From a virus, in the IMG/VR virus record IMGVR_UViG_3300046787_000438, positions 32,001-96,000 of that record: DNA of 64,000 bases, one strand, 5' to 3'. The stretch's first letter is position 1. Each line of letters starts with the position of its first letter. A program made the position numbers and the translations under genes. Shown piece after piece: positions 4,836 to 41,390 of the stretch. Below the pieces are notes generated by a model. That model searched no databases, was not told the DNA's origin, and was given only the letters and a program-made list of their open reading frames with translations.

Positions 4836-5597
4836 TTAAATTTCTAATGCTTTAAGTCTACTAGCCAACTGATCCAATGCTTCGAATATGGTAGTAGGCG
4901 CTGGGCTCCAGTCAGATGACTGGGTGGGAGTGTAGTTAGAGCTCCCAGCAGCTCCAGTCGGGCCAGTAGGGCCGACTTCGCCTGCAATTGTCTCTACCCA
5001 AAAGTTGTCATAGTAAATTAGTAGCTTACCCTCTAGGCTGCTGTACCAAATCATGCCGTCTAGAGCTGGGCTAGGTGCTGAGTCCGAGATTAAAAAGGTT
5101 CCTGCCTGTCCAGTTGCACCCGTAGGACCCGTAGCTCCAGTTGGTCCAATTGGACCTAGATCTCCAGTATTGCCTAGATCGCCCTTAGGCCCTGTAGGCC
5201 CCATATCTCCATCAGTACCATCAAGCCCATCGTCTCCGCGATTGCCTTTGTCGCCTTTTAAACCTTGAGGACCAGTTGCTCCCTGAATACCCTGAGATCC
5301 AATTGGACCTGTCGCTCCGACTGCACCTTGTGGCCCAGTATCTCCAGTAGCTCCTTGCGCTCCAGTAGGTCCAGTAGGGCCAACTACTCCTGTTGGACCA
5401 GTCACACCTTGGATACCTTGAATTCCTCTAGGGCCTACGGGGCCAGTATCGCCTAACCCACCCTGAGGACCAGTTGGACCTATAGATGCTGTAGATGCAA
5501 GTACACCCCAAACGGCACCATCCCATTTCCAGGTTGTTCCTCCAGCTGAGTGAGTGTCATTCACTACTGGATTATTAGGAAAATTAATTGAAGACAT
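4836..5597 (-). CDS. Collagen-like tail fibre protein
   Basis: N-terminal INFPNNP...WKWDG module, Gly-X-Y tract, C-terminal coiled coil ([14 protein letters not shown]). Confidence 0.85.
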
Positions 5598-8458
5598 TAT
5601 GGAGTTCCTCCATCGATAGTGTCAGCCCAAATAAAGTCGTAATCATCTTCGCTAACTTTTATCAAGACTTGCCCAGCGGAACCGCCAGTAGGAAGTCCAA
5701 CTCCAGGTTGCCCAGTCGGTCCAGTCTCGCCTACGGCTCCAGTAGATCCCGTAGGGCCTATACCCCCCTGGGGGCCAACTTGCGTGTAAGTGACCTGCGT
5801 AGCCGTTAAAATTATAGATGGAATGTGCGGTGCAGGGGATCCAGTAGTATTGTGCAGCAATACTATGTTCGTATTATCGGTTGACCACATTAATTCATAG
5901 TAGTCTCCAGCGACTATCTCAAAGACATAGTTCCAGGCAACTACTATATACGGGTTATTCGTATTTACTGCGGTAGTTCCAGCCGAATCTGCCACGTCTA
6001 CGCCATTTTTACGTAGCCATATTCTTACAGTAGTTCCATTACCTCCGCCACCAGCATTGTGTAATTGGGCAGAAAATTGAATATTGTATACGCCATCACT
6101 ATTAAAAGTTATTCTGGTATTGCCAACTACTGTTACTCCGTTAGCTCCTCCGATCGAGCCATATTTAATGGCGTATGGCGTATTTACACTTCCAGCTACC
6201 TGGGTAGTCTCATCATAGAATGACCCCCAGTAAGCCACTGTTCCTCCTGCGCCAGGGGCTCCAGTTGGACCTATAGAGCCTGTAGCACCAGTTGGTCCCT
6301 GCGCTCCAGTTGGACCACTGTTACCTACAAACCCTTGAGCACCTTGAATACCTTGAATACCCTGTGCTCCAGTTGGGCCTATAGGTCCTGTATCTCCCGT
6401 AAGTCCTGCTTGTCCTGTGGGACCTGTTGGTCCAATATCTCCAGCATCTCCCTGAGCTCCAGTTGGGCCAGCTTCTCCCTGTGGTCCTGTGCTTCCTGTA
6501 TTACCTGCAGGTCCAGTCGTTCCTTGGATGCCTTGTTCCCCTGGAGCACCTTGATCTCCTTGATCACCTTTAAGACCCTGCTCACCTGCAGGCCCAGTTA
6601 TACCTTGAATACCCTGATCACCCTGAGCACCCTGAGGACCAGTAGGGCCAGTTGGGCCAACTTCACCCTGAGGCCCAGTTGGACCGATAGGCCCTTGCTC
6701 TGCAACTGCAACCTCTACCCAGAAACTGTCATAATACATGTAGAACTTAGCGTTGACTGAGTTAAACCAAGAGTCCCCTTCTGAAGGAGACAGCGGGGCA
6801 GTATCTGAAATAGTATAAGCACCCTGCGCACCTGTTGGTCCTGTAGGACCTAAGTCACCCTGGTTACCCTGCTGCCCCTGCGGACCAGTGGGCCCTTGAG
6901 GGAGCACTAAGTCGAGTATTTGATCTGGAGCCTCGCCTGAAATATAGGCAGAAGCTGATTCACCAGGGGCTGTAGTAGTTACGTCACCTATTGATAGCTC
7001 GTTAACGGCACCAGTTGGTCCTGTAACACCCTGAATACCTTGAATACCTTGCGCACCAGTCGGGCCAGTAGGGCCAGTAGGTCCTTGAATACCCTGTTCA
7101 CCCTGAGGTCCTACAATCTGACCAGCATCTACCCAGGAGTCGCCGCTCCAGACGTGCAGATTACCATCTTCATCGACAATGTAGGCATCATTAGTGTCTG
7201 CAGAATCTGGAAGGTCTGCTAGTACGGAAACAGATCCGACAAAATTAATGTTGGTGCCTTGAGGTCCAGTAGGGCCTGTAGATCCAGTCGGGCCTAGGGC
7301 TCCAGTTGGACCAGCTAAGCTTGCATTTACCTCTACCCAGTAGCCGTCGATATATAGATAAAATGCTGCACTAGTCGAGTCAAACCAGCCATCTCCTTCT
7401 TCTGGAGATTCTGGAGGTAGCGTAGAAACGGCAAAATTACCGTCTGGGCCAGTAGCACCAGTTGCGCCAGTCGGGCCAAGGGAGCCTGTCGGTCCTGTAA
7501 TGCTCAGGCCTGCCGCACCGCGAGAACCCGTTGGACCTGTTGCACCTGTGGGCCCTGCCTGACCTGCTGAACCAGTTGGTCCAACAATTGATAGACCTGC
7601 TAGACCCTGCGATCCAGTTGGCCCTTGAATACCCTGAGCACCCTGAGGGCCAGTAGCACCACGAGGTCCTGTAATACTTAGACCAGCTGAACCTTGAGAC
7701 CCAGTAGCACCAGTAGCACCAGTTGGTCCAGTGTCTCCCTTAGCTCCAGTAGATCCTGTTGCCCCGTTTGTACCGTCTCTACCAGCTGCACCTGTTGCGC
7801 CTGTAGGGCCAGCAGCACCAGTCGCGCCTGTAGCACCATTAGTGCCAGCTGCACCTGTCGGGCCTGTAGCACCGTCAACGCCATCGACACCATCAACACC
7901 ATCAGCGCCAGCGGCACCAGTTGGGCCTATAGCACCATCAACACCATCAGTGCCAGCTGCACCTGTCGGGCCTGTAGCACCTTGAATACCCTGTGCACCA
8001 GTAGGTCCTGTAATACTTAGACCTGCTAGACCTCGAGCACCCGTGGCACCTGTAGCACCAGTAGCACCGACTGTGCCAGTTGCACCAGTAGGTCCTGTAA
8101 TACTTAGACCTGCTAGACCTCGAGCACCCGTGGCACCAGTAGCACCGACTGTGCCAGTTGCACCAGTAGGTCCTGTAGCACCATCAATACCATCTGACCC
8201 ATCTGAGCCTCTTGCACCTGTAGCTCCTGTAGCACCCGTAGGACCTACCGAGCCCGTTGGTCCAGGCACGGTAGATGCTGCACCCGTGGCACCTGTAGCA
8301 CCAGTTGCACCTATCGCACCTGCTGGGCCTGTTGCACCTGTGGCACCTATCGCACCTGTGGGGCCTCCAGCTGGTCCTGCGGGACCAGTTGGTCCAGCGG
8401 GTCCCTGAGGTCCAGGACCTTTAATATCTACATATGCAAAGTTATCGGAGAGTGCCAT
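5597..8458 (-). CDS. Long collagen-like tail fibre protein
   Basis: 953 aa, extensive GATG/GPTG repeats, C-terminal beta-rich (BclA/C1q-like) domain. Confidence 0.88.
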
Positions 8459-8832
8459 TACTTAGTTACCTCAGGTCTCACAATAAATTTTCCTTGAATA
8501 ATTCTCGTAGTTTCACTAGTAGGTGATTCAACCTCTAGGTCATATACGTAAGATTTGGGCTCGTATGCAGCCATGTCCGCAGGTGGAATTAGAAGAGTCA
8601 CTGACCCTGCGGATTGATTTACTGTTAAATAGCCGTTTTGAGTAGTGTATTCGGCAACTATAGTGGTCGCTGGATCCCTGTTTTCCACGTCCCACGATCT
8701 GACTTGCATACGAGCCGTATACCCTGTAAGTGCGATAGGCTTACGCGCTGAGTTTTTGATACCAAAAACTTGGTGCACAGTCGACCCCTGGTCAGTGACC
8801 AGGTCGTGCACGTTGCCGCGAAAATAGCTCAT
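8458..8832 (-). CDS. Tail-fibre adaptor/baseplate-like protein (paralog of 24317..24679)
   Basis: DQGST...ARMQVR...YDLE...QG.F.VR.EVT motif; first gene of a fibre operon. Confidence 0.65.
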
Positions 8833-8867
8833 TGCGAGTCCTTACAGGGAGACTAGACTAATCCCTA

Positions 8868-8880
8868 TAATTTTACCGCA
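8868..8880 (-). promoter_or_regulatory. Putative promoter motif TGCGGTAAAATTA (extended -10)
   Basis: Near-identical motif upstream of the minus-strand genes starting at 24679 and 60186. Confidence 0.6.
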
Positions 8881-8896
8881 GTTTGGCTAAACTGAG

Positions 8897-9619
8897 TTAG
8901 TAGCCCCCAGTATTGACGCCAGACTTGAGAGGGTGCTCACCCTTGTCGAGCTGGTCCTTCCACTCTGCCTGCATCTCTTTTTGTTGAGCTCGGACGCCCT
9001 CTATTTCAGCTTCCCACTCCGCCATGCGTTCTTCAGTATAGGTAGATTCGGCGTAATCCCAGAAAGCCCCAATGGTATGGCGAGTCCCTGACTCTACGAC
9101 CTTTACTTCATGTACGTTACCAATGCCGCCAGGGAAAGTAATTAGCTGCCCTGTTTTTGGCTTGATAGTGATTGGGTGGTCTCGGTAATTCAAATCTCCA
9201 CCGACATAATCATCATTGATGTAGAGCAGGCATACGAGCTTGCTCTTTTCCCAAGCTGACCAGTTACCTTCCATATCTGTGTTGTCTGAGTGGAAAGGGG
9301 CAAACGCCCCTACTTGCCACTTCTGAGCATGAGATGAGACTGATTTGACTGGACGCTGGTGAGCGTCCTCAACTGCCGCCTTCATCCTGTCTGCAAGCTT
9401 ACCTAGGTAGTCAGTAGGTAGGCCGTACTTCTCTAGCAATGGGTCCTCTGGCATGATGCTCATACCGTATGACTCGAAGAACGCTGACATGCTCCAAGGC
9501 TGCTCGGGATCTTCAAAAAATTCTACGATTTTAGCGCATTCTTCGGAAGAGATGAAGTCCTCATATGAGATGATATCTTCTTTGTAGAGAGTCTTTTCAC
9601 CGAACTCAGTGTTTGTCAT
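8897..9619 (-). CDS. 2OG-Fe(II) oxygenase, prolyl-4-hydroxylase-like
   Basis: FHSD...LLYINDDYVGGDL...HEV...R. Confidence 0.88.
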   Translation of the reverse strand: MTNTEFGEKTLYKEDIISYEDFISSEECAKIVEFFEDPEQPWSMSAFFESYGMSIMPEDPLLEKYGLPTDYLGKLADRMKAAVEDAHQRPVKSVSSHAQKWQVGAFAPFHSDNTDMEGNWSAWEKSKLVCLLYINDDYVGGDLNYRDHPITIKPKTGQLITFPGGIGNVHEVKVVESGTRHTIGAFWDYAESTYTEERMAEWEAEIEGVRAQQKEMQAEWKDQLDKGEHPLKSGVNTGGY

Positions 9620-10073
9620 CTAAATCTCCTTCATAACCTAGCTCTACTAGGAATCTACTGCTGTCAAATCTTTGATTGTCTTTAGAAAATAGCTTAGCAA
9701 ACTCCATAGCTAAGTAGCGATGAGACTCTCCAGAAATTCTTCCAATTACCGACTTTAAAATCTGGCTCGTTTTATGGTAGTCGTCACGAACAAATGTACA
9801 CTCTCCACCACGTGGACGTCTAAGAACTTTAGTGTGTACCTTACCTGTAGGTTCATATAGTTCAATAGTCAAGAAATCTTTAGCAAATCCCCAGTCCGTG
9901 TAGGCTGCGTACCCATTGGCGGCGTTTATTGCATCACCATAGAAGTAGATAGACCTAGCTGGAGACTCTCCATCTCGGGCAATCGTAAGCATGTATGAGT
10001 CAGCAGTTTTACTTACCACTCGATTTCTATAGTCAGAAACCATGTCAACATGCTCTGTCTTTAATTCGCTCAT
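9606..10073 (-). CDS. Hypothetical protein within the oxygenase array
   Basis: ORF translationally coupled to both neighbours; start set at the MSELK ATG. Confidence 0.65.
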   Translation of the reverse strand: MSELKTEHVDMVSDYRNRVVSKTADSYMLTIARDGESPARSIYFYGDAINAANGYAAYTDWGFAKDFLTIELYEPTGKVHTKVLRRPRGGECTFVRDDYHKTSQILKSVIGRISGESHRYLAMEFAKLFSKDNQRFDSSRFLVELGYEGDLDDKH

Positions 10074-10933
10074 TTGTCGGTCCATAGCTCCATGGTTGTA
10101 TACATACTGTTATCATAGATCTTTGGTCTAATGCCAATTCCAGTGAATTTACGTTGCCCAGCGGTGAAGCCACCCATTACAGAGTGGTACATTCTAAATA
10201 GATCGACTATTAAGATGTCGCCTTCTTCCCATAGCTGGGAATATCTAATCTCTAAATTATCATTTAAGTTAGTTTTTAGTACGTCTAGTAGGACATTTAG
10301 CCTATCTACTTGCTCTTCTGTTGGGGGCTTACCGTCCCAAAGGGCAAGTTCTGGCATTAAATAAGAGCCTCGGTCCGTCTCTACCCTAAGTATCTCTTGC
10401 TGAGTTAGAGGGTGCTTATCTACTACTTTAGTGTAGAAAGGTCCAGTGCCATGTGGTGTAGGTTTATCCCATTTCACTATAGATTTAGAAAGAAACTCTC
10501 TATCCTTATTGCTATATAACGCGTACAATTCAGCAGAATCTACGAATCTAGTAGTCCCCGAGCCAGCAGGTGCTGTAAAAGTTGTCATGTGCCACACTCC
10601 AGCGAGTATCGGGTAGACGTAGTATACCTGCTCTATATGCCAATCTAAAACATACTCTTCAGAGGTCTGATTATAGTCTTTATCTACATTGTCAGAGTGC
10701 CCGCCAGGGTATATAGACGTTTCTATAGTAGAGCGAGGAGCATCCGATGACACATTCCAGCCCATGGAGTTACCTAGAGTCTTTGTTAGCTCGACTTGAT
10801 CCTCGAGCGAGAAGTCTCCGCCCCTAATAACTAAAACGCCATCACGTTTAAATACTGCCTTAAGGGCGTCTACGTCACTAAAAAGATCTTCAACAGATGT
10901 AGCTTCAATTATCTTTATCGATTTTTCTGGCAT
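10070..10933 (-). CDS. TauD/TfdA-family 2OG-Fe(II) dioxygenase
   Basis: GVLVIRG, WHIE, GTTRFVD, WEEGDILIVD...H motifs. Confidence 0.82.
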   Translation of the reverse strand: MPEKSIKIIEATSVEDLFSDVDALKAVFKRDGVLVIRGGDFSLEDQVELTKTLGNSMGWNVSSDAPRSTIETSIYPGGHSDNVDKDYNQTSEEYVLDWHIEQVYYVYPILAGVWHMTTFTAPAGSGTTRFVDSAELYALYSNKDREFLSKSIVKWDKPTPHGTGPFYTKVVDKHPLTQQEILRVETDRGSYLMPELALWDGKPPTEEQVDRLNVLLDVLKTNLNDNLEIRYSQLWEEGDILIVDLFRMYHSVMGGFTAGQRKFTGIGIRPKIYDNSMYTTMELWTDK

Positions 10934-10936
10934 TCT

Positions 10937-11812
10937 CTAAATCTCTTCATCTGGCTCGTAGCGGTCTTTTAGATTACCTGACTCTAAAAGCTGGTAGTAC
11001 TCTTTTAGAGTTACTCTCATTTTCATATATGGCTCCATAATTTTCAAATCATGGCGCTTCCTGCGTGAGATCTCTAGTTCTTCAAACTCGTCGCCGTACT
11101 TCTCCTTAAGCTCATGCCAGTCTGGAGTTCCTTCAAAGTTATACATCCAATAGAGTCTAGTTATATATTTAGGTGCTCCATAAATTCTTTTAACGGCGTG
11201 AAAATAAGGGTATCCTGAAGGAAATATTACTAAATCCCCCGCTTTGGGCTTATATTCAAACTCTCGTACAACTTCCCCGTCCTCGATCACGCGGTATGCA
11301 ATTTCTCCACCCTCGTAGTCGTCATTTGGGTATAAGACACCAGTTATGCCGAATTTATCTCCAGGACTGTCGGCAATCTCTGGCATATAATCAGAGTGAT
11401 AGTTCATGGTTAAATGTTCGTTACCATTTAGATTTTCATCAGGTATGTATCTAGCTAGGCCCCAGGGTTGGCATGACCAGTTGGTAAGCGATATCCCCGT
11501 GTGTTCGATATAAAATTTAGTTGCAAAGTGAAATGCCTTAGCCACCTCTAAAAAGTACTTGTCCGCTCCCTGCTCAGTTTCTGCTTTTTTGGCAACATCC
11601 TCCCACTCCTGTAGCGTCGGGAAGTGTGGGTGTGCTATAAAGGTATGTACTCTGCTATCTATTTGACGACCAAAACCGTACCAACCTCTCCAGTCGCCGT
11701 ATTCTTCATAGTAGTCGATATAGTCGTCAGGGTCGGACAGCACGTTGTGGAATACTATTACATTGTCATCTAGTATCTCGACATTTGGATTGTCTTTAGT
11801 GTAGTCTTCCAT
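10937..11812 (-). CDS. 2OG-Fe(II) oxygenase
   Basis: YHSD...LYPNDDYEGGEI...PKAGDLVIFPS...HAV. Confidence 0.88.
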   Translation of the reverse strand: MEDYTKDNPNVEILDDNVIVFHNVLSDPDDYIDYYEEYGDWRGWYGFGRQIDSRVHTFIAHPHFPTLQEWEDVAKKAETEQGADKYFLEVAKAFHFATKFYIEHTGISLTNWSCQPWGLARYIPDENLNGNEHLTMNYHSDYMPEIADSPGDKFGITGVLYPNDDYEGGEIAYRVIEDGEVVREFEYKPKAGDLVIFPSGYPYFHAVKRIYGAPKYITRLYWMYNFEGTPDWHELKEKYGDEFEELEISRRKRHDLKIMEPYMKMRVTLKEYYQLLESGNLKDRYEPDEEI

Positions 11813-11822
11813 CTAATCCTCG

Positions 11823-12470
11823 TTAAACTTCCATATCAATAAGACTATTTATCGGCATATGCACATGAGTGATTATTGTCTTACGACCACTAATTAGCGG
11901 TCTAGACTCGTGTAAATAGCCTGAGGGGAACACTACAATACTACCAGCCTTGTTTTTTATAGCTATATCTAGCCCTGGCTGCACGATCCCTAGCTCGCCA
12001 CCCTCGTACTCATCATCTAGGTATACAGCGATAGTTACCGTATCTCTACCTGAAACGACCATGTCACGGTGAGGCCCCATGTCTTTGTACTCGTCATACC
12101 TACGAATTCCATACGTATGGGTACCGAAGATCTCTTTATGTAGATGCTCTAGCTCCGAATCAGCTGCTCCATGTGCTTTTAGGTACGTGGCTGTACAAGC
12201 TTCCATCGAGCCCAGGATTGAGTTTAAAACATACTCTGATTTTTCTTTGATTAGTGGATTAGACTCTCTAATCAAATCTGGATAGCTAAGTGTCTTTAAA
12301 TCTCCGTATGGATTTTCTTTTGAGTCATTATTGGCATACCAGGTCTCCCAGGGGGTTACGGATAAGCTATTAATATCCTCTAGAGTTTCCATGACATTAG
12401 CTATCTCTGGAATAGCTCCTGGAAAGTAATAAACGTTCCTATGAAGAACCTCGACCGTTAGTGCAGACAT
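11823..12470 (-). CDS. 2OG-Fe(II) oxygenase
   Basis: PHRD...VYLDDEYEGGEL...FPS...HES. Confidence 0.86.
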   Translation of the reverse strand: MSALTVEVLHRNVYYFPGAIPEIANVMETLEDINSLSVTPWETWYANNDSKENPYGDLKTLSYPDLIRESNPLIKEKSEYVLNSILGSMEACTATYLKAHGAADSELEHLHKEIFGTHTYGIRRYDEYKDMGPHRDMVVSGRDTVTIAVYLDDEYEGGELGIVQPGLDIAIKNKAGSIVVFPSGYLHESRPLISGRKTIITHVHMPINSLIDMEV

Positions 12471-12471
12471 G

Positions 12472-13257
12472 TTAGTCCTCGTCTAGGTACTTAGTTGGTC
12501 CAGCGTTCACGTCATTGTATGCTGAACCAGCATTGAACTTTTTACGAGATTCTGGGTCATTTGCATCAAACTCTGGTTGGAAGATGAATCCAGGGAACAT
12601 GTACTTATCCCCGCTCTTCATTAGGTGTACCTGATGCTTATATGGATGAGTAGACGGGAAGATTAGTGCTTGACCAGCTTTAGGCTTGATCGTGAAGTCT
12701 ACTAGTTCAGAATTCGATTGATCATTGACGTCGTCTGCTGGGCGTAGGTGCCCATTTTTTGGGTTACGTAGGTCATACGGTCTGATGATGAATGACAATT
12801 CTCCACCATCGTAGTCATCATTCACATATACAACAATTGACCATTTAATGCTTAGGTCACCAGCCTGCGCGTCAAAGTGGGCACCCATCGCGCAACCTGG
12901 CCTATACTTCATGATACCAGCGAATGGAGAGATATTAGGCTCTCCCTCTTCTTCATGATCTTTATAGAAAGCATGAGAGATATTCTCAATAGCACCTCTG
13001 ATTTGTCCAACAACCCAGCGGACATCTTCAGCACGCTCTGAGGTGAGCTCGTCTAGCCCCTCGAGGTTAAAGTCTTTCTTGCTGCCGAAGCTGTGCCCGT
13101 CTTGTGTATTAGAAAACCAGAACCCCCACTCAGGGATTACGGACTGGACGGTCTCGTCCTCGTCTAGTTCTTCGATTAGTTGGAGTAGGCGTGCTGGGTC
13201 ATCTAGCACATCACCATATAGATATACGTTCTCGTGTAGTTTTTGTTCTAAGTGCAT
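12472..13257 (-). CDS. 2OG-Fe(II) oxygenase
   Basis: AHFD...VYVNDDYDGGEL...FPS...HQV. Confidence 0.88.
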   Translation of the reverse strand: MHLEQKLHENVYLYGDVLDDPARLLQLIEELDEDETVQSVIPEWGFWFSNTQDGHSFGSKKDFNLEGLDELTSERAEDVRWVVGQIRGAIENISHAFYKDHEEEGEPNISPFAGIMKYRPGCAMGAHFDAQAGDLSIKWSIVVYVNDDYDGGELSFIIRPYDLRNPKNGHLRPADDVNDQSNSELVDFTIKPKAGQALIFPSTHPYKHQVHLMKSGDKYMFPGFIFQPEFDANDPESRKKFNAGSAYNDVNAGPTKYLDED

Positions 13258-13259
13258 TA

Positions 13260-13937
13260 CTAATTACTTCCTAAGTGGTTTTTAATTGTCCAAAAGAACG
13301 GGCATACATATCTAATGCCAGATCTAATCTCGGTTACTCCGTGGATGTAGTGCATATCGCCAGGGAAGAAGTATGCAGCTCCAGCCTTAGGCTTAAACTG
13401 AATCCCCTGGTTAGGGAAGTATAACTCGCCGCCCTCGTAGTCGTCGTTGATATAGAAAAGGCCAGCGATGTCATAGTATGGGAAATCGTTTGGCTTGCCA
13501 CGATTCTCACCCTCATGTAGCTCTTTATCGGCATGTGGCTGCTGACGTTGTCCAGGGAGCCATCTAACAATTGCTGGACTAGTTGCGTGAGCGTCTACAT
13601 TGAAGAACGCGTCTACCTTTTCTTTTAGACGAAGCTGCATACCAACAATAGTTTCTGTAATCCTAGGATCTACGCTATTTAGGGTGGGGGCAGTGGCAAC
13701 CCTATGGTCCCAATAGCCAGAGTCGTAAATGACAGTCCCGTCCTCGTTATAATGAGTCTCGGTCTTATCCCAGGTTTGGTTAGTCTTAGCGAACTCAGTT
13801 AAAATTCTGAGCTCATCCTCGGTCATAAAGTTTTCCAGGGAGACAATGTTATCTCTAGAATCACCAAAAAATCCAGATGGTGTGGTTGACTCATAGGGTC
13901 TATCACTACCATTGGTAACATGCGCTGTCATTGCCAT
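13260..13937 (-). CDS. 2OG-Fe(II) oxygenase
   Basis: PHAD...FYINDDYEGGELYF...HGV...RY. Confidence 0.9.
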   Translation of the reverse strand: MAMTAHVTNGSDRPYESTTPSGFFGDSRDNIVSLENFMTEDELRILTEFAKTNQTWDKTETHYNEDGTVIYDSGYWDHRVATAPTLNSVDPRITETIVGMQLRLKEKVDAFFNVDAHATSPAIVRWLPGQRQQPHADKELHEGENRGKPNDFPYYDIAGLFYINDDYEGGELYFPNQGIQFKPKAGAAYFFPGDMHYIHGVTEIRSGIRYVCPFFWTIKNHLGSN

Positions 13938-13951
13938 ATAGCTATCCTACC

Positions 13952-14692
13952 CTACTCGTACTTACGTCGTTCCCAGACTTCGCGTTGATACACGCCTCCG
14001 TCTGGAACTCTATATTTCATGCTATTTTCTTGATTTTTTGCCATCATTTCCATTGGCCCGAACTTGGTAATCGTTTCTGACTCCCAGTTTTCCCGTTTAA
14101 ATGGGAGTATTTGAGCATATGGAGTACCAGCTGGGATAGTGCCCTTGAATCCCTTAGCAATAAAAAATGGCATAGTGCCAGGTAGATGTACTTTATCGTT
14201 ATCGATAATTCCACTAGTGGTTAGGAATGGTAGTTCGAAGCGGTTAAAAGGCTGAGTGTATAGAGCGCTGTAGCCCTCTGGTAGCTCTACGGCCCAATCA
14301 GCCCACCAAGCAAAGTGCTTCTCGTGGTACCCATATGGGTTATGGAATTGAGGCATCGGCATACGTTCTTGGATAAAATCTTTATTTTTTTCGTCCAAAA
14401 CTTTAACTTGGATCTGCCCCGTGGAGTCCTCGTAGAACTCTATATCGCATGGGGTTTTATACATATACCCGCTGCCCATAATATCGTACACTGCTGGGCA
14501 GGCTTTCCATGTAGGGATCTTTCCGCCGCCATTTGGCATTTCCCATGGCTTGCCAGTCATTGGATTTACGGCAAAACGATCTGCGTCTCTATACCAATCT
14601 GGAATAGTCTTTATTGCAGGCCCTGGCTTAGATGGGCTCTCGTTATTGAGCCACGGTCTATTTAGTATAAATTTAGCCTTCTGAGTGTCCAT
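13952..14692 (-). CDS. Conserved phage protein, DUF6065-related
   Basis: KACP...LPEGYSAL...IPAGTP..Q.LP; shares the IPAGTP region with 14673..15440. Confidence 0.5.
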   Translation of the reverse strand: MDTQKAKFILNRPWLNNESPSKPGPAIKTIPDWYRDADRFAVNPMTGKPWEMPNGGGKIPTWKACPAVYDIMGSGYMYKTPCDIEFYEDSTGQIQVKVLDEKNKDFIQERMPMPQFHNPYGYHEKHFAWWADWAVELPEGYSALYTQPFNRFELPFLTTSGIIDNDKVHLPGTMPFFIAKGFKGTIPAGTPYAQILPFKRENWESETITKFGPMEMMAKNQENSMKYRVPDGGVYQREVWERRKYE

Positions 14693-15440
14693 CTGACTCC
14701 CCCTCCTCTACTTCGTAGGTTTGACCAGTGAATGGACACATTACTGTCTTGAGCTTAATTGATTTTGTTTCGTGGGCTCCCACGGTCTCTCCTCTATAAT
14801 CGACAGCATCTCGGTACATTTTTGACCAGTCGCCTACGCCATTCTTAATTTCTTGGATATCACCATACTTGCGGACTTCCTGCCAGTATTCCTGGGCTGG
14901 GAGGCCATCTAAAATTTCCAGGCTGTAGTCCTGCTGTAGAGCACTCAATGATATCGGTAATACTGCGGCAATTGGTGTCCCCGCTGGGATATGTACTTCT
15001 ACATTAGGCTCGGTGAGCCTCCAGGCTATCGGTAACATGTGCATATAAAAGGAAGTACTCATTAGGGTCGTGTAGCACTGAGTCCCTCTTATGAATTGAT
15101 TAGGGACTGGCATAGCTAACATTGTGGTGTCAGAGTCGGTTATTAGTTTCAATCCAGTAGTGAAACTAATAGTGGCGTTTCCTCTACCAGTATTTAGAAA
15201 CTGATGGCCCTCTAAAATTGTTACATGGTCTGGAGTAGTGTCGGTTATCCCGTCCCATATAAATCTAAGATCCTCGGGAAATGATATCCCCCAGCCTAAC
15301 CTGTTAGTTAGATTAATTGGGAAGCACATATAGGCGTGCTTATCATCGGTGCTATCCATCCAGTCTCGACGAGCTTGGAGCTGCTCTATATTAGCTGTCT
15401 TACCTTCATGGAAAAGCTTTTGAACCTTAATAGTACCCAC
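14673..15440 (-). CDS. DUF6065-like protein
   Basis: R.WMD....HAY.C.P....N..GW N-terminal motif. Confidence 0.6.
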   Translation of the reverse strand: MGTIKVQKLFHEGKTANIEQLQARRDWMDSTDDKHAYMCFPINLTNRLGWGISFPEDLRFIWDGITDTTPDHVTILEGHQFLNTGRGNATISFTTGLKLITDSDTTMLAMPVPNQFIRGTQCYTTLMSTSFYMHMLPIAWRLTEPNVEVHIPAGTPIAAVLPISLSALQQDYSLEILDGLPAQEYWQEVRKYGDIQEIKNGVGDWSKMYRDAVDYRGETVGAHETKSIKLKTVMCPFTGQTYEVEEGESDGHSEG

Positions 15441-16222
15441 TATGCGTCTGTATCTTCGTAGAATTCTGGACGATGATACTTTTCAGAGAAATCCAACATG
15501 GTGACCATTGAGTACTTGACACCTGACTTCACTGGCATAGCGCGATGAGGGTACATGAAATTTGATGGGAAGATATATACATCTCCAGCGCGAGCCTTTA
15601 TTTGTGCATTTTGCAATCTAAAAAATAGCTCGCCGCCTTCGTAATCATCGTTAGGGAACGCAACTAGTGATACCACACAGTTATACGAGTATCCATGGTC
15701 GTGGTGCTCCTGGAAATGCTGGCCTTCACCGTATCGGACATAGTTAGTGGCCTCCCAGTAGCGTAGCTCTCCGACATTGTAGTGACGAGTGTAATCCTTA
15801 ACTACCTGAAGCTCTCTATATGTTACATCATCTGCTAGCTTCTTTAGAATCTCCCCCGCTTCAGAATTATCGTGCTCTATGTCGGTCTTCTTATATTTAA
15901 AATCAACACAATCGCGATACTCTGGCATCTTCATTTGATAGCCAACCATAGCTTCACGCCAGTCGTAGTTGTTGGATGGGTCGTCTACGACAGACTCTAG
16001 TCGCTTGATGATATCCATCTCTTTAGGAAGAACGTCCCTATAAACCCAAATGCCGCTACCAGGAATCACTTCCTGAGATGACGACCATGTCTGCTCATCT
16101 AAGGTGTACCACTTAGCTAATCGATTTTGTAGATTTTGCTGCTCTTGCTTACCTTTTTGGTCAATAGCGGCGTCTGCTTTTTGCTTTTCCATTAGCTCTT
16201 CTGGAGTCAAGTCCTGTGCCAT
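15440..16222 (-). CDS. 2OG-Fe(II) oxygenase
   Basis: EHHD...NDDYEGGELFF...FPSNFMYPHRA.PV..G.KY. Confidence 0.9.
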   Translation of the reverse strand: MAQDLTPEELMEKQKADAAIDQKGKQEQQNLQNRLAKWYTLDEQTWSSSQEVIPGSGIWVYRDVLPKEMDIIKRLESVVDDPSNNYDWREAMVGYQMKMPEYRDCVDFKYKKTDIEHDNSEAGEILKKLADDVTYRELQVVKDYTRHYNVGELRYWEATNYVRYGEGQHFQEHHDHGYSYNCVVSLVAFPNDDYEGGELFFRLQNAQIKARAGDVYIFPSNFMYPHRAMPVKSGVKYSMVTMLDFSEKYHRPEFYEDTDA

Positions 16223-16230
16223 TTTTATCC

Positions 16231-16962
16231 TTAGTACTTTAGTTTGTAGTCTTCGACAACTTGAGAAACTCTTTGGTTTACACCGTCTCTATCGTGATAG
16301 TCAGTCATTACAACTACGGCATATTTGGTACCCTCTATCATTTCTTTAGAGGCATGTTCATAAATAAATGTAGAGGGGAATATTGCGATATCTCCCTGTT
16401 TCGGCTTTAAGTCTACACCGAATCTAGGGAACCAGAGCTCTCCACCTTCGTAATTATCATTTAGATATATAACGGCAGATATTGTTGCTACATATGTTGG
16501 CCCGTGATCAGCGTGAATTCTAAACTGGGTACCAGCCCCCTCGTACTTTACAAAATTAAACGCTTCGTAAGCTCGGATTCCTACGCCCCAGTAGGCTCCG
16601 TAGTCGTCGACGCACATACGTAACTTCTGAAAAATTTCTTCGTGGAGATCGTAAAGAGCGGAGTTCTCGGGGGTTCTAGGCCCTAAGTTGTTACTCGAAA
16701 CCTTAAAGTCCTGAGCTTTTCTGGCGTAGTTATCCACCTCAGCGGAGTTAGAAACTTTGGCATTGCTCCACTCAAACTGAGTGCTGCCATCTAAATTAGC
16801 CTCTAACTGAGATATGTACCTATCGCAATCGGCTGGTGATATAGCGTTTCTATAGACGTTTATACCCAGCGCTGGGTTGAGGACTGACATGTGCCCTAGT
16901 TGGCGGTCTGCCATTCTAGAGGATGCAGTCTCTGATCTATCTTTAGTGAACCATATATTCAT
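16231..16962 (-). CDS. 2OG-Fe(II) oxygenase
   Basis: IHAD...YLNDNYEGGELWF...FPS..IYEH...KY. Confidence 0.9.
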   Translation of the reverse strand: MNIWFTKDRSETASSRMADRQLGHMSVLNPALGINVYRNAISPADCDRYISQLEANLDGSTQFEWSNAKVSNSAEVDNYARKAQDFKVSSNNLGPRTPENSALYDLHEEIFQKLRMCVDDYGAYWGVGIRAYEAFNFVKYEGAGTQFRIHADHGPTYVATISAVIYLNDNYEGGELWFPRFGVDLKPKQGDIAIFPSTFIYEHASKEMIEGTKYAVVVMTDYHDRDGVNQRVSQVVEDYKLKY

Positions 16963-16983
16963 AGTAGATATCCTACTACAGAT

Positions 16984-17026
16984 AAAAAGAAAAGCGGCTA
17001 GATTTCTCTAGCCGCTATCTCTTTTT
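16984..17026. terminator. Intrinsic terminator after the PPFF gene
   Basis: AGCGGCTAG-ATTTCT-CTAGCCGCT hairpin flanked by A- and T-tracts. Confidence 0.75.
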
Positions 17027-17031
17027 GGAGA

Positions 17032-17925
17032 CTACTTATCGTCGTCTTCCTTCAACTCTTCCCATGATTCCCATGGGATTGAGTAAGCGAAGTAAGGAGG
17101 GAAGAAAGGAGGGAAGAATGGTGGGAAGAACGGGAAGAAAGGAGGGAAGAATGGTGGGAAGAACGGTGGGAAGAAAGGAGGGAAGAACGGGAAGAAAGGA
17201 GGGAAGAATGGTGGGAAGAACGGGAAGAAAGGAGGGAAGAAGGGAGGGAAGAACGGGAAGAAAGGAGGGAAGAATGGAGGGAAGAACGGTGGGAAGAATG
17301 GTGGGAGCGTAGTTACGTTGCCTGACAGATCTGATGCAGCGGAATTACCGTTAGCATTAGTTGCAATAACGCTGTACTGCTGCGCTGTATTCATTTCCTG
17401 CGGGACAGTTATTGATGTAACAGTTGAAGCAACTGTATTTCCCTTAGCATCTGTTGATGCCCAGGTGTAGCTAGAAATAGCTTTTCCACCGTCATTTGGT
17501 GCTGTCCAAGAGACAGAGTCTTGGTCTGGCACTGTTGATGATGCTGTAGGAGCTGCGGGCTTTGCTGGAACTGTTGTTACAGTTCTAGCTGGTGCGGCCG
17601 TGCCTGGTGAGGTACCAGCCGCATTAGATAGTTTGACAGTAGCAGTGACTGAAGAATTGCTGGCTAGCCCTGTGACTGTAGCTGTATATGTACCGCTAGC
17701 TGGTGTGGGAAGGGCCCCACTACCTATGGTCGTACCAGCCGCATTACTTACTATATAGTTAGTGGGTGCAGGGGATAGAGCATTAATTGTCCAGGTAATT
17801 GTAAGTGCACCGTCATTGAAGGCACGGTCAGTGCCTACATCAGTTGCAGTTACATTTTCTGGGGCCATAGGCTCCAGGAAGTCATTTTGAGCAGCGGAAC
17901 GGCCGCCAGCCTCTTTCTTTGCCAT
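17032..17925 (-). CDS. Fibronectin type III protein with C-terminal 72-aa (PPFF)n tract
   Basis: Two FN3-like repeats (P..VTAT...ITWT; VSWTAP.DGG.AISSY), then the PPFF tract and an acidic tail. Confidence 0.78.
   Translation of the reverse strand: MAKKEAGGRSAAQNDFLEPMAPENVTATDVGTDRAFNDGALTITWTINALSPAPTNYIVSNAAGTTIGSGALPTPASGTYTATVTGLASNSSVTATVKLSNAAGTSPGTAAPARTVTTVPAKPAAPTASSTVPDQDSVSWTAPNDGGKAISSYTWASTDAKGNTVASTVTSITVPQEMNTAQQYSVIATNANGNSAASDLSGNVTTLPPFFPPFFPPFFPPFFPFFPPFFPPFFPFFPPFFPPFFPFFPPFFPPFFPPFFPPFFPFFPPFFPPFFPPYFAYSIPWESWEELKEDDDK
17089..17304 (-). repeat. (PPFF/PFF)n coding repeat, 72 codons, ending PPYF
   Basis: Seen directly; synonymous Pro codons vary between units. Confidence 0.95.
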
Positions 17926-17943: not shown

Positions 17944-20424
17944 CTAAGCAGTCAGGTCGCCGTAGACGATCCAGGTGTTAGCAGCTCTCTTTAATAGTGT
18001 AGCAGATGACCAGCGGGTGCGTAGTTTCAGTCCAGGGGTTGCGTTAACGGTAACTCCGTCAGCTCCAGCAATAGTCACTTGGCCAGTATTTGTCTGAATA
18101 ATGTCGATGCTAGTACCGACTGGGTAGGCTACAGATGAATCTAGAGGGATCGTGATAGTTGTTGCTGATGTATTTGACACCTCGATGATATCATCACGTA
18201 GCCCTAAGTTATCTAGGGTATAGCTAGCGGTCTTATAGATGAAACTAGAGATTGAAGGAACGCCAGCTGAACTCTGCTGAGTTCCGTCATTGAAGGCTAC
18301 AAACCCAGTAGAAACCCCTGCGTTGGCTATAACATTTTGAGCTTCGATGCTTGCAAAAGAGAAAGATGCATCAGCTGTGTCAATGTAAAGTGACTCGTCT
18401 GGCTCTGGAACATAATTGTCAAAGAACTTAAATCGGCCATCAGTAGCATCTCGGAACATGCCAGTGTGTGCATAGGTACCGCTAGCATAACGTCCAGCGG
18501 CCCAACCTAGGTCTGGATCGGTACTAACTCTAGCTCTAGCAGCTCCACCAGTGAGGTAGGTGTCAGTTACTGTACTTGCTACAGTAAATGTATTCGCTGT
18601 CACCTCTAAAATCTGTGCGCCAGGTGCTGCTATATCAAATGAGCTAGGAGAGGAATCCGTTATGACAACATAGTGTCCAGCAGCATACCCGTGGTTTGCA
18701 ATAGTCTCGTATACAACGTAGGTACCGTCCCCTATAGCACTATTAATTCCGTTTAGGCCAGGGTTATTCAGGTAAATCATGTTGTCTTGTACAGCAAGAT
18801 TTGCTGTGTTAACGGTGGTTGTTGTACCTACAACATATAGATCACCAGTGATAGTGACATTTGTTGCCTCTACATCTCCAGTAAAAATTGCACCATCTAG
18901 ATTTGCCTTGGCATCTAGTGCACCCTGGGTAGCTATAGATACTGGCTTGTCAGCATCTGAAGTGTTGTCAACATCACCAAGGCCGACCATTGACTTTGTG
19001 ATACCAGAGGTTGTACCAGTAAAGGTAGCATTTGCAGTAGGTGCTTTAGCGTCAATCTGGGTCTGAATAGCTGAAGTAACACCATTCAAATAGCCGATCT
19101 CTACGTTAGAGGTGTCACCAATTGAAGTAGTTGATGGTAGCACTACGGTACCAGTGAATGTCGGTGCAGCTAATGGTGCATAAGTAGTTGCTGCAGTAGC
19201 AGATGCAAGTTTTGCATCTAACTGAGTCTGGATAGCTCCAGTAACCCCATTTACGTAGCTGAGCTCGGTCCCAGATACGTCACCAATTGAAGTAGTTGAT
19301 GGTAGCACTACGGTACCAGTGAAGCTAGGACCTTCTAATTGAGCATAAGCTTCTAGGTCCGAGGCAATAACCAGAGTGCTAGTATCTGCAATGCCGTGAA
19401 CATTGGTGGTATCATCTGAGTGCGCTGCCAAGATAGATGTAGTAACTAGATCTGCAGTATTGGCAATACCGTGAACATTGGTGGTGTCAACGTTGTGGGT
19501 ATTAATTGCTGAATTCAAGTCAGCTGTCACCACTAGGTCAGCAACGCTAGCGATACCGTGGACTCCAGAAGTTAGAGCTTCGTGACTACTTAGTGTATTT
19601 GCAACGTCTGAAGCTGCGTCTAAGGCACCAGCAATATCAGTCTGATATGCCAAGTTTGCAGTATTAGAGATACCATGAACGTTTGTATCCAAGTTCTCGT
19701 GGTCGTTCATTAGGTTGTCAGCATATGATTTACCAACAAAATCCAAGCTGTTATAGTGTGTAACCCCGTCACCAACACGCACAAAACCAGCGTGGTCGCT
19801 TTCGATGTATAAAGTATTTGCGGCAGTTACTACGTTTGCAGTTGCAAAATTAGCAGCAGTGTCGATTACAAAGTTAATTTTGCCACCAAGCGAAGTAGCC
19901 ATAGTGGTTGCAAAATTAGGGTCATCAGAAAGAGCTGCTGCAAGCTCATTTAGAGTATTTAAGGTTCCTGGGGACGAATCTATTAGATTAGCAACAGCGG
20001 TATCAGTGTATGAAGCGGCATTAGCCTGAGCCGCATTTGCCTTGTTCTGAGCACCAGTCTGAGTTTCTAGAGCTGCAGTGTCTGCAATTCCATGTACATT
20101 TGTAGCGTCATCTATATGAGCGTCCAATGTTGATAGCCCAGCTGTGACAGTATTGCCGAAGTTAGCGTCGCCACCGATAGACGCAGCTAGCTCGGCTAGG
20201 GTGTCCAAAGTCTCTGGGGCAAGACCCACTACATCAGCAAGCGCATTGTCTACATATGACTGGCTAATTGCGCTATATGCAAGTGCACCCCAGTTATCAG
20301 TAGCATTACCAATCTTAAATGCACCAGTATCTGACTCATAACCTAATTCACCAGCTGCTAGTACTGGATTGGCGCTTGCCCATTCTGCAGCGGTGCCGCG
20401 TCTGAACTGAATTCTAATTGCCAT
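17944..20424 (-). CDS. Tail fibre protein with Mtd_N-like N-terminal domain
   Basis: IQFRRGTAAEWASANPVLAAGELGYESDT; LDTL.ELAA.L..D.NF motifs; repeated NVHGIA.T. Confidence 0.8.
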   Translation of the reverse strand: MAIRIQFRRGTAAEWASANPVLAAGELGYESDTGAFKIGNATDNWGALAYSAISQSYVDNALADVVGLAPETLDTLAELAASIGGDANFGNTVTAGLSTLDAHIDDATNVHGIADTAALETQTGAQNKANAAQANAASYTDTAVANLIDSSPGTLNTLNELAAALSDDPNFATTMATSLGGKINFVIDTAANFATANVVTAANTLYIESDHAGFVRVGDGVTHYNSLDFVGKSYADNLMNDHENLDTNVHGISNTANLAYQTDIAGALDAASDVANTLSSHEALTSGVHGIASVADLVVTADLNSAINTHNVDTTNVHGIANTADLVTTSILAAHSDDTTNVHGIADTSTLVIASDLEAYAQLEGPSFTGTVVLPSTTSIGDVSGTELSYVNGVTGAIQTQLDAKLASATAATTYAPLAAPTFTGTVVLPSTTSIGDTSNVEIGYLNGVTSAIQTQIDAKAPTANATFTGTTSGITKSMVGLGDVDNTSDADKPVSIATQGALDAKANLDGAIFTGDVEATNVTITGDLYVVGTTTTVNTANLAVQDNMIYLNNPGLNGINSAIGDGTYVVYETIANHGYAAGHYVVITDSSPSSFDIAAPGAQILEVTANTFTVASTVTDTYLTGGAARARVSTDPDLGWAAGRYASGTYAHTGMFRDATDGRFKFFDNYVPEPDESLYIDTADASFSFASIEAQNVIANAGVSTGFVAFNDGTQQSSAGVPSISSFIYKTASYTLDNLGLRDDIIEVSNTSATTITIPLDSSVAYPVGTSIDIIQTNTGQVTIAGADGVTVNATPGLKLRTRWSSATLLKRAANTWIVYGDLTA

Positions 20425-20713: not shown

Positions 20714-23113
20714 TTAACCGATTACTACTACACGGTAGCTGTCTGCTGAAACAGTAGACGAAGCAATCCATGAGATAGTCACCGCGTTGGTGCTTGTCAC
20801 CATTACATCAGCCTCTACTAGCGAGTTATCGGCTAGATCGCGGATCTGAACGGTTACATCAAGAGTACCAATACCGTGAGTCACGGTCCAGGTGACAACA
20901 CCAGCCGACGGGGTCAAGCTTGAGTTATTCTCTGAGTACTTAGTAGTTGCAGCAAGGTTAGCGCGTGCACCAGCAGCAGTTGTTGCTCCAGTACCACCGT
21001 TAGCAATTGCTACGGTTCCGTTCACATTGTCAGCATTTCCAGAAATGTCACCAGAGATGTCTTCACCAGGAATAGATGCTACAGATGTAAGGAATCCACC
21101 TTCACCTCCACCAACTAGGTATGAACCTGAGGTGAAGAAGGTGTTTCCAGTACCACCGTGTGATACAGGGATGGTAGAGCCATTCCAGACACCAGTTGTG
21201 ATGGTTCCAACAGTATCGATCGAGGTCTGACCAGCATAGTCAGAAGCAATCGAGATACCGTTTACATCAACAGTAATTCCAGATCCAGCGTCAGCCGAGA
21301 TTGAAGTACCAGAGATATTTACACCACTACCTGCAGTGTACTGACCAGCTGCAGAGAACTGAGTCCAGGTAGCGCCAGACATCCCCGAGTAGGCCGTTAC
21401 AATGTATCCGCGGGCCTGGTTGGTTCCTAGCTCAACGAATACAAAGTCGCCAACTTCAGGAGTTTGCTGATCGTCAGCTGCAATGAGCATTGACATGGCA
21501 GGCCCAGCCGCTGAGTCGTATACGTAGATTCCGTTATACAGACCCATGCCGCCAGCTTGGTTCTTAACAAGAACGCGGTCGCCATCTTGCAGTGTTATTC
21601 CGTCAATAGCACTATCGCGGAATGGAGCACTTAGAGAGCTAGTTGTAGCTACCTTTACAGAATCTTTAACATTCAGACCCTGTGAGGCGGCCGAGATCTC
21701 GCCACGAAGAGTAGAGAGAACTACGTCATCTGCAGCATTGAAGTCGGAGGTTAGGCTGGTCTCGAGTGCATCTAGGCCAGAGGTTAGGTCAGAAGCTACG
21801 TTGCTGATGTCAGTGGTTAGACCAGAAGCTACAGTGTTTGTGTAGTCCTTCGAGGTCTGAATCGCATTGCTGATGTCAGTTCCAAGGCCGCTAACAGAGC
21901 TAGTAACGGTGTTAGATAGGTCTGAAATGTCTCCAGCTAGACCCTGATCTGCAAGTTCGAAAGCTGAAGTTACGTTAGTACCAATAGCATTTGCGTAGTT
22001 CTTGTATGCAGTCTCAGTTGCTGAGGACGCGCTTGAAACCGCTGAGTCAGTGTAGTCATTTGCATTAGATTCAGCAGTTGCAGCTGAGCCAGAAGCGTCA
22101 TACCACGAGTCAGTAGCATTTCGATCGATTTCTACCTCATTGGTAGAGCCAATCTTAAGGCCATTTCCAGTATCGACGTTCAGTACGCTGTTAGTTACGG
22201 TCAGACCGTCGCCAGATGAGGTAGCAAAGATACCTGCTACAGCGTTGTCGATATCGCTCTGTAGTCCAGTAGCTACACCATCAACGTATGAGACGGCATT
22301 GCTGTAAGCAACTCCTGCAGCATCGGCGATATCGGTAGATAGGCCAGAGGCTACGGTGTTTGTGTAGTCCTTTGCATCCGACAAAGCCGAGGCAGCTGCG
22401 CCTGATGCATCGTAAGTCCCTGAGGTAACCGAGATGGTGTCAGAATCAATTGTGATTCCTGTACCTGCAGTTAGAGTATTCTGCTTGCCAGAGATCATGG
22501 CGGCAATGTCAGTTGCATAGTTCGGGTTATCTGCAAGTGCAGCAGCGAGCTCATTTAGAGTGTTCAGAAGTGCAGGTGCACCATCAACTAGGTTAGCTAC
22601 CGCAGTGTCGGTGTAGTCATTGGCATCTGAAAGAGCAGAGGCAGCAGCACCAGCAGCATCGTAGTTAGATGCTAGGCCATCTGCGTAGCTCTTAGCGTTA
22701 TTTTCTGCAGTTGTTGCAGCACCAGCAGCATCGTAGTTAGATGCTAGGCCATCTGCGTAGCTCTTAGCGTTATTTTCTGCAGTTGTTGCAGCACCAGCAG
22801 CATCGTAGTTAGATGCTAGGCCATCTGCATAAGCTTCTGCATTTGCCTGAGCAGTTGAGGCAGATCCAATTGCATCGTAAGTATTAGCTAGATCAAGTGC
22901 AGTGATTGCAGCATTGATTGCTTCGGTAACATTACCGCCCGCAGCAAGGGCAACCCAGGACGTACCGTCATAGTATTTTAGAGCTGAATCTACGGTGTTG
23001 TAGTAGATCTGACCTACAACAGGCGAAGAGGGAGCTGTTGCAAGGTTTTGAATCCTTGCATTCTGAAGCTCGTTTTTATTGAGGTTCAGGTTCGTTAAGA
23101 ACTGCTTTGCCAT
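20714..23113 (-). CDS. Tail fibre/appendage protein
   Basis: Ala-rich 24-aa repeats; [10 protein letters not shown]...NGIY; GGTG motifs. Confidence 0.78.
22644..22828. repeat. 72-nt tandem repeat (about 2.5 copies; [24 protein letters not shown])
   Basis: Unit starts recur at 22651, 22723 and 22795. Confidence 0.85.
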
Positions 23114-30089: not shown

Positions 30090-30420
30090 GGGGATGACAG
30101 GTTTCGACGGTCATTCAACAAACTAGTGAAGCAAGCAGAGAAGCCTGTACCTCTTAAATCGGGCAAAGCAATAAATGCAAACTCACGTTCAGCATTCGCA
30201 CTAGCAGCCTAATAACTGTTAGTACCCCTAAGCAGCAGTAGTTCTAACTGGGCACTTAGGCTTTAAATAAATAGAACACCCTGCACCACGTCCATGCTGG
30301 AGACGTAAAACTGAAGCACCAGGAGATGTGGCAGTGCAGTCTCCGAAATATTCACTGCCTAAGCTTGTAGAAGAATAGTTTATTTTTGATCGGACGGGGG
30401 TTCAATTCCCCCCATCTCCA
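30090..30420 (+). ncRNA. ssrA: tmRNA, tag peptide ANSRSAFALAA (30177..30212)
   Basis: 5' GGGGATGACAGGTTTCGAC; 3' GGGGGTTCAATTCCCCCCATCTCCA; G3.U wobble in the acceptor stem; tag ending ALAA-stop. Confidence 0.95.
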
Positions 30421-41348: not shown

Positions 41349-41390
41349 AGCCAAATTATATCAATTAATATAGTTAAATTAGGATTAAGT

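Follow-up and report, generated by a model that had tools for sequence, protein, structure and literature searches.

A conserved phage locus pairing a Pro/Phe repeat protein with prolyl-hydroxylase-like oxygenases and DUF6065-like proteins

What purpose could be served by a row of Fe(II)/2-oxoglutarate (2OG) oxygenase genes that lies in the virion-fibre region of a phage, directly behind a gene whose product carries a long run of little but proline and phenylalanine? The question is raised by positions 8897-17925 of the 64,000-nucleotide (nt) window analysed here, which covers positions 32,001 to 96,000 of the IMG/VR virus record IMGVR_UViG_3300046787_000438, an uncultured phage whose 152,411-bp record has direct terminal repeats. 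The twelve open reading frames (ORFs) of this locus are all on the minus strand, and adjacent ones either overlap or are separated by gaps of at most 69 nt. A first-pass annotation, made from the sequence, had listed an FN3 protein with a PPFF repeat, seven prolyl-hydroxylase-like oxygenases, a TauD-type oxygenase, two DUF6065-like genes and one orphan, and had placed them inside the virion-fibre region. Pfam and hhalign agree with this gene content, and the tail-fibre genes that flank the array on both sides agree with the placement. The same annotation had read the locus as a phage line for post-translational modification, a reading that is retained here for the repeat, given its conserved linkage to the enzymes and the match between repeat and enzyme set, and that finds no support for collagens as co-substrates, for excised peptides as products or for any specific chemistry.

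Besides the gene anatomy, three observations carry the answer proposed here: the linkage of the repeat gene with the enzyme genes is conserved, the catalytic motifs are intact, and the type of repeat matches the enzyme set. The role of the tail as substrate, the choice of proline as target and the location of the protein on the virion are inferred. Our preferred reading, to which we assign a probability of about 0.6, makes the FN3-repeat protein a virion component associated with the fibre and has its Pro/Phe tract hydroxylated by the array, mainly on proline, the oxygenase orthogroups being divided by position or regiochemistry, while the DUF6065-like proteins would act on the repeat or hold it.

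The Pro/Phe repeat gene and its linkage to the enzyme genes

The proposed substrate, FN3-FN3-(PPFF)n, is a protein of 297 amino acids (aa) encoded at 17032-17925 on the minus strand (Pfam fn3, E 7.7e-6, 26.5 bits against a cut-off of 25). The conserved gene upstream of it encodes a tail fibre of 826 aa (17944-20424, minus strand; Pfam Mtd_N, E 7.6e-14). The repeat, read from the translation and detected by Tandem Repeats Finder (period 12, 19.2 copies), is an unbroken run of 72 residues (208-279; 17089-17304, minus strand) made of PPFF and PFF units, the last unit being PPYF. It is followed by an acidic tail of 18 residues, which corrects the first description of the protein as ending in the repeat. 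The proline codons of the repeat are mixed (CCT 16, CCA 11, CCG 6, CCC 1) and all 37 phenylalanine codons are TTC, compared with 70 TTT and 70 TTC in the neighbouring genes; this codon usage indicates that the repeat is kept as a protein sequence, with T-runs avoided.

The association of (PPFF)n with 2OG oxygenases and DUF6065, on which the first-pass annotation had made its case depend, proved strongly positive from three independent anchors. With the repeat itself as anchor, a DNA pattern for (PPFF)3 was scanned over IMG/VR and matched at least 120 viral contigs, in nearly all of which the PPFF frame is open. Among the 63 distinct PPFF ORFs with at least 3 kb of downstream sequence, an oxygenase or DUF6065-like gene begins on the same strand within the next 3 kb in 54 cases, and in a further 4 an enzyme gene is present elsewhere in the locus. 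When DUF6065 served as anchor, relatives were found to be encoded by 582 viral stretches, the best 79 of which were analysed; in these, a homologue of the FN3 protein is located just upstream of the first oxygenase wherever the upstream gene was read, and its tail consists of PPFF, PPYF or PPHF, or of a period-6 unit xPPxFF (small-P-P-small-F-F). The third and neutral anchor was the tail-fibre gene 17944-20424, relatives of which are encoded by 383 viral stretches, with the FN3-repeat gene directly after them. Counted over the loci with at least 4 kb downstream, a Pro/Phe ORF and oxygenases occur together in 30, neither occurs in 20, oxygenases only in 7 and the repeat only in 2 (Fisher p 5.7e-8). 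As a control, prokaryotic sequences yielded only 22 (PPFF)3 matches in 596 billion bases: the long genuine repeats, on contigs of metagenome-assembled genomes, have enzymes, and about 14 short chance matches have none.

In three sets of loci with at least three oxygenases, Pro/Phe ORFs accompany 46/50, 59/75 and 32/38 of the loci, whereas collagen-like ORFs accompany only 2/50, 6/75 and 3/38, and the suggestion that collagens are co-substrates is not upheld by these counts. Collagen was also considered as the conserved partner of the array and rejected: a (Gly-X-Y)n gene is present in this window (5597-8458) and such genes are rare beside related arrays, unlike in a collagen and prolyl 4-hydroxylase (P4H) system, for which a (Gly-X-Y)n neighbour conserved across related loci would be expected.

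The composition of the repeat and the set of enzymes vary together. Fibre relatives that have no array keep the FN3-repeat-Hint-like gene and a dUTPase-fold gene, and their repeats are poor in proline. Such Pro-poor repeats are of the types (FGA)n, (FTPFG)n, (SFTPY)n and (SPF/APF)n, and relatives with the first three are accompanied by 0-2 P4H-like genes. Over 60 non-identical proteins with at least 8 kb downstream, the rows being related to one another, repeats with a higher proline fraction tend to be accompanied by more P4H-like genes (Spearman rho 0.62), the mean number being 0, 1.0, 5.7 and 6.6 at proline fractions of <=0.15, 0.15-0.3, 0.3-0.4 and >0.4. The dUTPase-fold genes are present at all proline fractions. 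A tree built from the FN3 part shows about five separate origins of the Pro-poor state. That the number of enzymes tracks the proline content agrees with a modification line directed at the repeat. Three Pro-poor relatives (L243:5699-6316, L221:2903-3553 and L226:7044-7802; related loci bear L numbers) encode a protein of about 200 aa with the motif D-W-H-[DE]-H-G ... H-P-H and without a Pfam family; it is located where the P4H array would be and may be a different metal enzyme.

The scaffold that bears the repeat varies among relatives, from short proteins to FN3, immunoglobulin (Ig) and Hint-bearing ones, and the enzymes are still adjacent. The repeat is located at or near the mature C-terminus; many of the proteins stop at ...PPxFK, and in others a Cys-rich knot comes after the repeat. 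A basic N-terminal peptide, which may be a docking element, is conserved across the FN3 proteins; in relatives it shows the motif G-x-K-S-S-A-Q-[DN]-[ND]-F-L-x-P. In many relatives (L177:7105-8541, L206:13637-14947, L142, L148, L152 and others), a Cys directly after the aromatic repeat opens a Hint/intein-like domain of about 150 residues ending in ...HN. We name this domain Hint-like only, because its scores (E 0.006 and 0.0012) fall under the Pfam thresholds; it would cleave itself off and could leave the repeat with a C-terminus activated for transfer.

A second PPFF protein, of 326 aa, is encoded in the window at 2482-3462 on the minus strand, about 5.4 kb beyond the last gene of the array, in the company of collagen-like fibre genes and outside the segment covered by the first-pass annotation. 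Its translation has an internal repeat of 49 residues (DNA 2899-3045) followed by a He_PIG Ig domain (E 7.3e-10), and an orthologue is present in L061.

A terminator-like hairpin (16993-17016, minus strand) with a 10-bp stem, 6 G-C pairs and a T-rich tail separates the repeat gene from the first oxygenase gene. Non-homologous hairpins occupy the same position in 19/50 distinct related loci compared with 11/141 control windows (Fisher p 2.8e-6), all of them, like the one described here, being matches to a consensus only. Such an element would fit abundant transcription of the structural gene with read-through to the enzymes behind it, and an attenuator is a possible interpretation.

The oxygenases and the DUF6065-like proteins

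Seven ORFs of the array, all on the minus strand, encode P4H-like 2OG-Fe(II) oxygenases of Pfam family PF13640, with scores of 30.9-48.8 bits against a gathering cut-off of 27 bits. In the order of transcription they are 16231-16962 (E 7.8e-11), 15440-16222 (E 1.4e-12), 13260-13937 (E 1.3e-7), 12472-13257 (E 3.3e-10), 11823-12470 (E 2.6e-9), 10937-11812 (E 5.6e-7) and 8897-9619 (E 2.7e-7), the last being the final gene of the array. The HxD motif, the distal H and the K/R are visible in all seven translations. In alignments of 25 sequences for each of two orthogroups, H173, D175, H226 and K236 of 15440-16222 and H150, D152, H203 and K213 of 16231-16962 are invariant. Searches of the PDB with the single sequences of 15440-16222 and of the TauD-type protein gave no match, so that orthogroup profiles were needed to find solved relatives. 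The nearest of these is the P4H of Bacillus anthracis (3itq/5hv0), with E 4e-5 for the 15440-16222 profile and E 4.8e-6 for the 16231-16962 profile, and the next matches are procollagen lysyl hydroxylase and P4H-TM. With these invariant residues and this nearest solved kin, the array enzymes look active and peptide-directed, and a peptidyl-proline hydroxylase activity is suggested by their kinship to the B. anthracis enzyme.

The seven paralogues share only 23-38% identity with each other, whereas for three of them the median identity to orthologues, found in 58-143 other viral loci, is 58-61%. Since orthologues are far closer than paralogues, these genes are old and separately maintained rather than recent duplicates, and each would so be kept for a role of its own. 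Orthogroups were defined by best-hit assignment; single-linkage clustering at 35% identity fused paralogues and was dropped. Three orthogroups form a core: that of 15440-16222 is found in 100% of Pro-rich loci, and those of 13260-13937 (clear orthologues in 143 loci) and of 8897-9619 in 95-100% of them. The orthogroup of 12472-13257 is present in about 75% of Pro-rich loci, and that of 11823-12470 is rare, with clear orthologues in only 2 loci. Two others follow the period of the repeat. The orthogroup of 16231-16962, which comes immediately behind the repeat gene, is tied to the period-4 PPFF type, occurring in 79% of period-4 loci compared with 13% of period-6 loci, and that of 10937-11812 occurs in 51% of period-4 and 93% of period-6 loci.

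Two accessory genes stand among these oxygenases on the same strand. The TauD/TfdA-type 2OG oxygenase at 10070-10933 (PF02668, E 5.5e-20) lies outside the conserved core, with a close orthologue only in L033; it covers positions 25-264 of the 267 of the Pfam profile and shows by eye W-H-I-E and later M-Y-H, a Glu replacing the Asp of the HxD/E motif. The 159-aa protein encoded at 9606-10085 has no Pfam match, and its homologues in 8 PPFF loci and in the syntenic contig L302 mark it as a conserved accessory gene.

The two DUF6065-like proteins are encoded in the middle of the array, at 14673-15440 and 13952-14692 on the minus strand. The former scores 85 bits against DUF6065 (PF19541; cut-off 26.6; E 7.3e-24). 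The latter has no Pfam match; its profile is joined to the DUF6065 profile by hhalign (probability 96.9%, E 1.6e-10), and since this is a profile-profile comparison only, we treat it as a distant paralogue and not as a member of DUF6065 by Pfam's rule. An invariant HAYxCxP motif is present in 14673-15440 and an invariant Cys65 in 13952-14692, and the two proteins thus keep an aligned invariant Cys. Their AlphaFold models have a predicted local distance difference test (pLDDT) score of 86 and 90, respectively. When the monomer fold of the 14673-15440 model was compared with known structures, the top 23 matches were all dUTPases or dCTP deaminases (Z up to 10.5); for the 13952-14692 model, Foldseek ranks dUTPases top with a probability of 0.99 and a low TM-score. 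The models thus give both proteins a predicted dUTPase/dCTP-deaminase fold. Neither has a dUTPase Pfam match at E up to 0.1, and their identity to dUTPases is 9-16%. They should not be filed as dUTPases, since membership by sequence fails and a conserved HAYxCxP motif and Cys are found instead. The 13952-14692 type stays beside the aromatic-repeat gene even in those relatives from which the oxygenase array is missing.

Related loci show further insertions between the repeat gene and the oxygenases: a GPx-like (peroxidase-like) gene in L047, L100 and L025, a radical-SAM-like gene with a CX3CX2C motif in L066 (9174-10172), which goes with a Cys-rich tail, and small Cys-rich genes in L030 (2200-2430) and L024 (4008-4247). 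In the genome described here, four further PF13640 genes on the minus strand (30720-31310, 33865-34455, 37583-38236 and 40569-41354) lie dispersed between genes for replication and metabolism, and two of the four share 53% identity. No orthologues of the four were found among the PPFF loci, and they therefore probably serve another role.

Proposed function and comparison with known systems

We propose that the locus is a conserved phage module in which a substrate is encoded together with the enzymes that modify it. Encoded right after the tail fibre, the FN3-FN3-(PPFF)n protein is probably a fibre-associated virion protein, and its extreme C-terminal Pro/Phe tract would form an exposed, extended tail. 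The prolines of this tract are probably hydroxylated by the co-transcribed and divergent P4H-like oxygenases, each orthogroup probably serving a different position or regiochemistry. It can be hypothesised that the tract, in itself very hydrophobic, is made by hydroxylation into a soluble tail of the polyproline-II type. The dUTPase-fold DUF6065-like proteins appear to go with the aromatic repeat itself, and could be a repeat-binding accessory or an enzyme.

Knowledge of tandem arrays of 2OG oxygenases in aquatic phages goes back to 2007-2010. For the array gp41-gp54 of the Synechococcus phage Syn9, a secondary-metabolite synthesis was proposed, with no protein substrate (Iyer, Abhiman, de Souza and Aravind 2010; PMC2938197). 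Other proposals linked cyanophage 2OG oxygenases to nitrogen stress and 2-oxoglutarate handling or to DNA repair (Sullivan et al. 2010; PMC3037559). The Syn9 array comes directly after tail-fibre and fibre-assembly genes, as it does here, and both arrays combine several mutually distant tandem 2OG dioxygenases with a dUTPase-fold Cys protein; that of Syn9, gp43, matches the DUF6065-like profiles at E 1.3e-10 (13952-14692 profile) and 9e-7. The matches of gp43 and the position behind fibre genes argue that the two arrays are kin. They differ in that Syn9 also has two tryptophan halogenases and a JmjC/MINA-type enzyme, for which the array ORFs here gave no Pfam match, and in that all array oxygenases here except TauD are of the P4H type. 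Syn9 has no Pro/Phe repeat gene nearby, whereas a candidate substrate gene is linked to the array described here. Between its fibre genes and the dioxygenase/halogenase array, Syn9 (L200) encodes at 8856-9806 a very Gly-rich, Cys-containing low-complexity protein, gp36, which may correspond to the Pro/Phe tail protein.

The P4H of the chlorovirus PBCV-1 hydroxylates the Pro-Ala-Pro-Lys repeats that were tested, and such repeats are encoded by viral genomes (PMC3634087). It is the nearest functional precedent, a virus-encoded P4H acting on Pro-rich repeats as is proposed here, but a single enzyme of a eukaryotic virus with a non-aromatic PAPK repeat and no dUTPase-fold partners, where gene adjacency is no part of the case. 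The B. anthracis P4H shares the HxD...H...K motif, over a match of about 60-75 residues of the catalytic core, and differs in being the bacterial product of a single gene with a collagen-like peptide as substrate. Plant extensins and mussel foot proteins are likewise Pro- and aromatic-rich repeats that are hydroxylated after translation, giving extended, adhesive or cross-linkable surface polymers; these systems rely on the eukaryotic secretory pathway, their aromatic residue is Tyr, and they involve neither a multi-enzyme operon nor a virus particle. On the proposed reading, the locus would belong with P4H-type modification of Pro-rich structural repeats and with phage dioxygenase arrays.

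Neither a near-DNA search nor a protein search with the PPFF and DUF6065 proteins gave a match in the cultured-phage collection, where an array oxygenase found only cyanophage genes of 27-35% identity and where no cultured relative carrying the module was found. A homologue search returned 920 clusters under automatic names that were uninformative or evidently wrong ('hypothetical protein', 'DUF6065', one 'ThiS'), and a search of the library of papers found no mention of DUF6065 and no description of PPFF repeats in phages.

Several points weigh against the proposed modification of the repeat. The Syn9 array shows that such arrays can exist without this substrate, since Syn9 has no Pro/Phe gene. 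Seven of the fibre-anchored loci have oxygenases and no recognised Pro/Phe ORF after the fibre gene, and 5 of the PPFF ORFs have no enzyme in the DNA examined. Many loci come from related phages, which inflates the raw counts as well as the Spearman coefficient. The tree of the FN3 part offers only 4 independent pairs, of which 3 lose oxygenases together with prolines, none shows the opposite and 1 is a tie (p 0.25), an underpowered test which with so few pairs is unable to reach significance. Finally, seven enzymes are many for a substrate of just two residue types.

Some of these points would be explained if the oxygenases modified another target, such as the large fibre, the collagen-like fibres, other virion proteins or a component of the host envelope, the FN3-repeat gene being a syntenic neighbour within one broad phage lineage. 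The array does lie between fibre genes, with the collagen-like fibres next to it in the window, P4H and collagen are a textbook pair, and both the Syn9 array, located after fibre genes, and the seven fibre-anchored loci manage without a recognised repeat gene. We nevertheless consider such a target unlikely, given the scarcity of collagen-like ORFs beside related arrays and the 20 fibre relatives that have no array. Moreover, loss of prolines from the repeat goes with smaller arrays or none, on several separate branches of the tree, and the repeat stays beside the enzymes on different scaffolds.

A small-molecule or metabolic pathway, whether for a secondary metabolite, for 2-oxoglutarate or nitrogen-stress handling or for DNA repair, would follow the published proposals for cyanophage 2OG oxygenases (PMC2938197, PMC3037559), and the PF13640 genes scattered among the replication and metabolism genes of this genome could be taken in the same sense. 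These scattered oxygenases are, however, a different set, and Pfam detected no peptide synthetase, halogenase or other scaffold-building gene among the array ORFs. The array enzymes group with peptidyl prolyl and lysyl hydroxylases, and the array is located in a structural module and co-varies with a protein repeat; a metabolic function is accordingly improbable to our minds. The arrangement also recalls clusters for ribosomally synthesised and post-translationally modified peptides (RiPPs), in which a repetitive substrate gene and a hairpin precede the tailoring enzymes, as here and as in many RiPP operons, and the Hint-like self-cleaving domain directly after the repeat of some relatives could be read as a means of release. 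RiPP clusters have a short leader-core precursor with a leader protease and/or an exporter, whereas the present protein, of 297 aa, is folded, with two FN3 domains and a conserved N-terminal peptide that is not a leader, and Pfam finds no protease, cyclase or exporter family among the 12 ORFs of the cluster. Since the Hint-like domain would excise itself, the repeat would stay on the FN3 body. That modified Pro/Phe peptides are cut out and released, as the first-pass annotation had allowed, would thus be very surprising.

Beyond hydroxylation of the repeat on a fibre-associated protein, we advance tentatively, as a doubtful possibility, that the module builds a new kind of polymer on the surface of the virion. 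Adsorption to the host would then be aided by a Pro/aromatic tail, hydroxylated at many positions and carried at the tip of the fibre, DUF6065 would be a new class of repeat-directed modifying enzyme or chaperone built around the invariant Cys, and in relatives the Hint-like domain would release or transfer the end of the tail. The locus and its relatives already supply a concrete and genetically linked candidate substrate for phage oxygenase arrays. If the fibre-tip polymer were real, the long-unexplained oxygenase arrays of aquatic phages would acquire a protein-modifying role. If the proposed modification of the repeat holds, phages would be seen to tailor their own adsorption apparatus by multi-enzyme post-translational chemistry. 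It would also give the DUF6065 family a working context, and would provide enzymology and biomaterials with orthogonal peptide hydroxylases acting on a very simple repeat substrate.

Neighbouring fibre genes and RNA genes

The array is followed on the minus strand by a small fibre-assembly-like gene (8458-8832; phrog_1084) and, at 5597-8458 and beyond, by the collagen-like fibres that form its downstream flank. The small gene has a paralogue at 24317-24679 on the same strand; each member of this phrog_1084 pair is directly upstream of a collagen-like fibre gene and shows weak similarity to an L-shaped tail-fibre assembly protein. A fibre or decoration gene of 799 aa (20714-23113) contains a perfect 72-nt tandem repeat at 22644-22828 (2.6 copies, 100% identity). 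Further along the window, a phage transfer-messenger RNA is encoded at 30090-30421 on the plus strand, with the tag ANSRSAFALAA, between genes for tRNA-Met, tRNA-Asn and tRNA-Gly, and a second cluster, of seven tRNAs, is located at 47460-48328.

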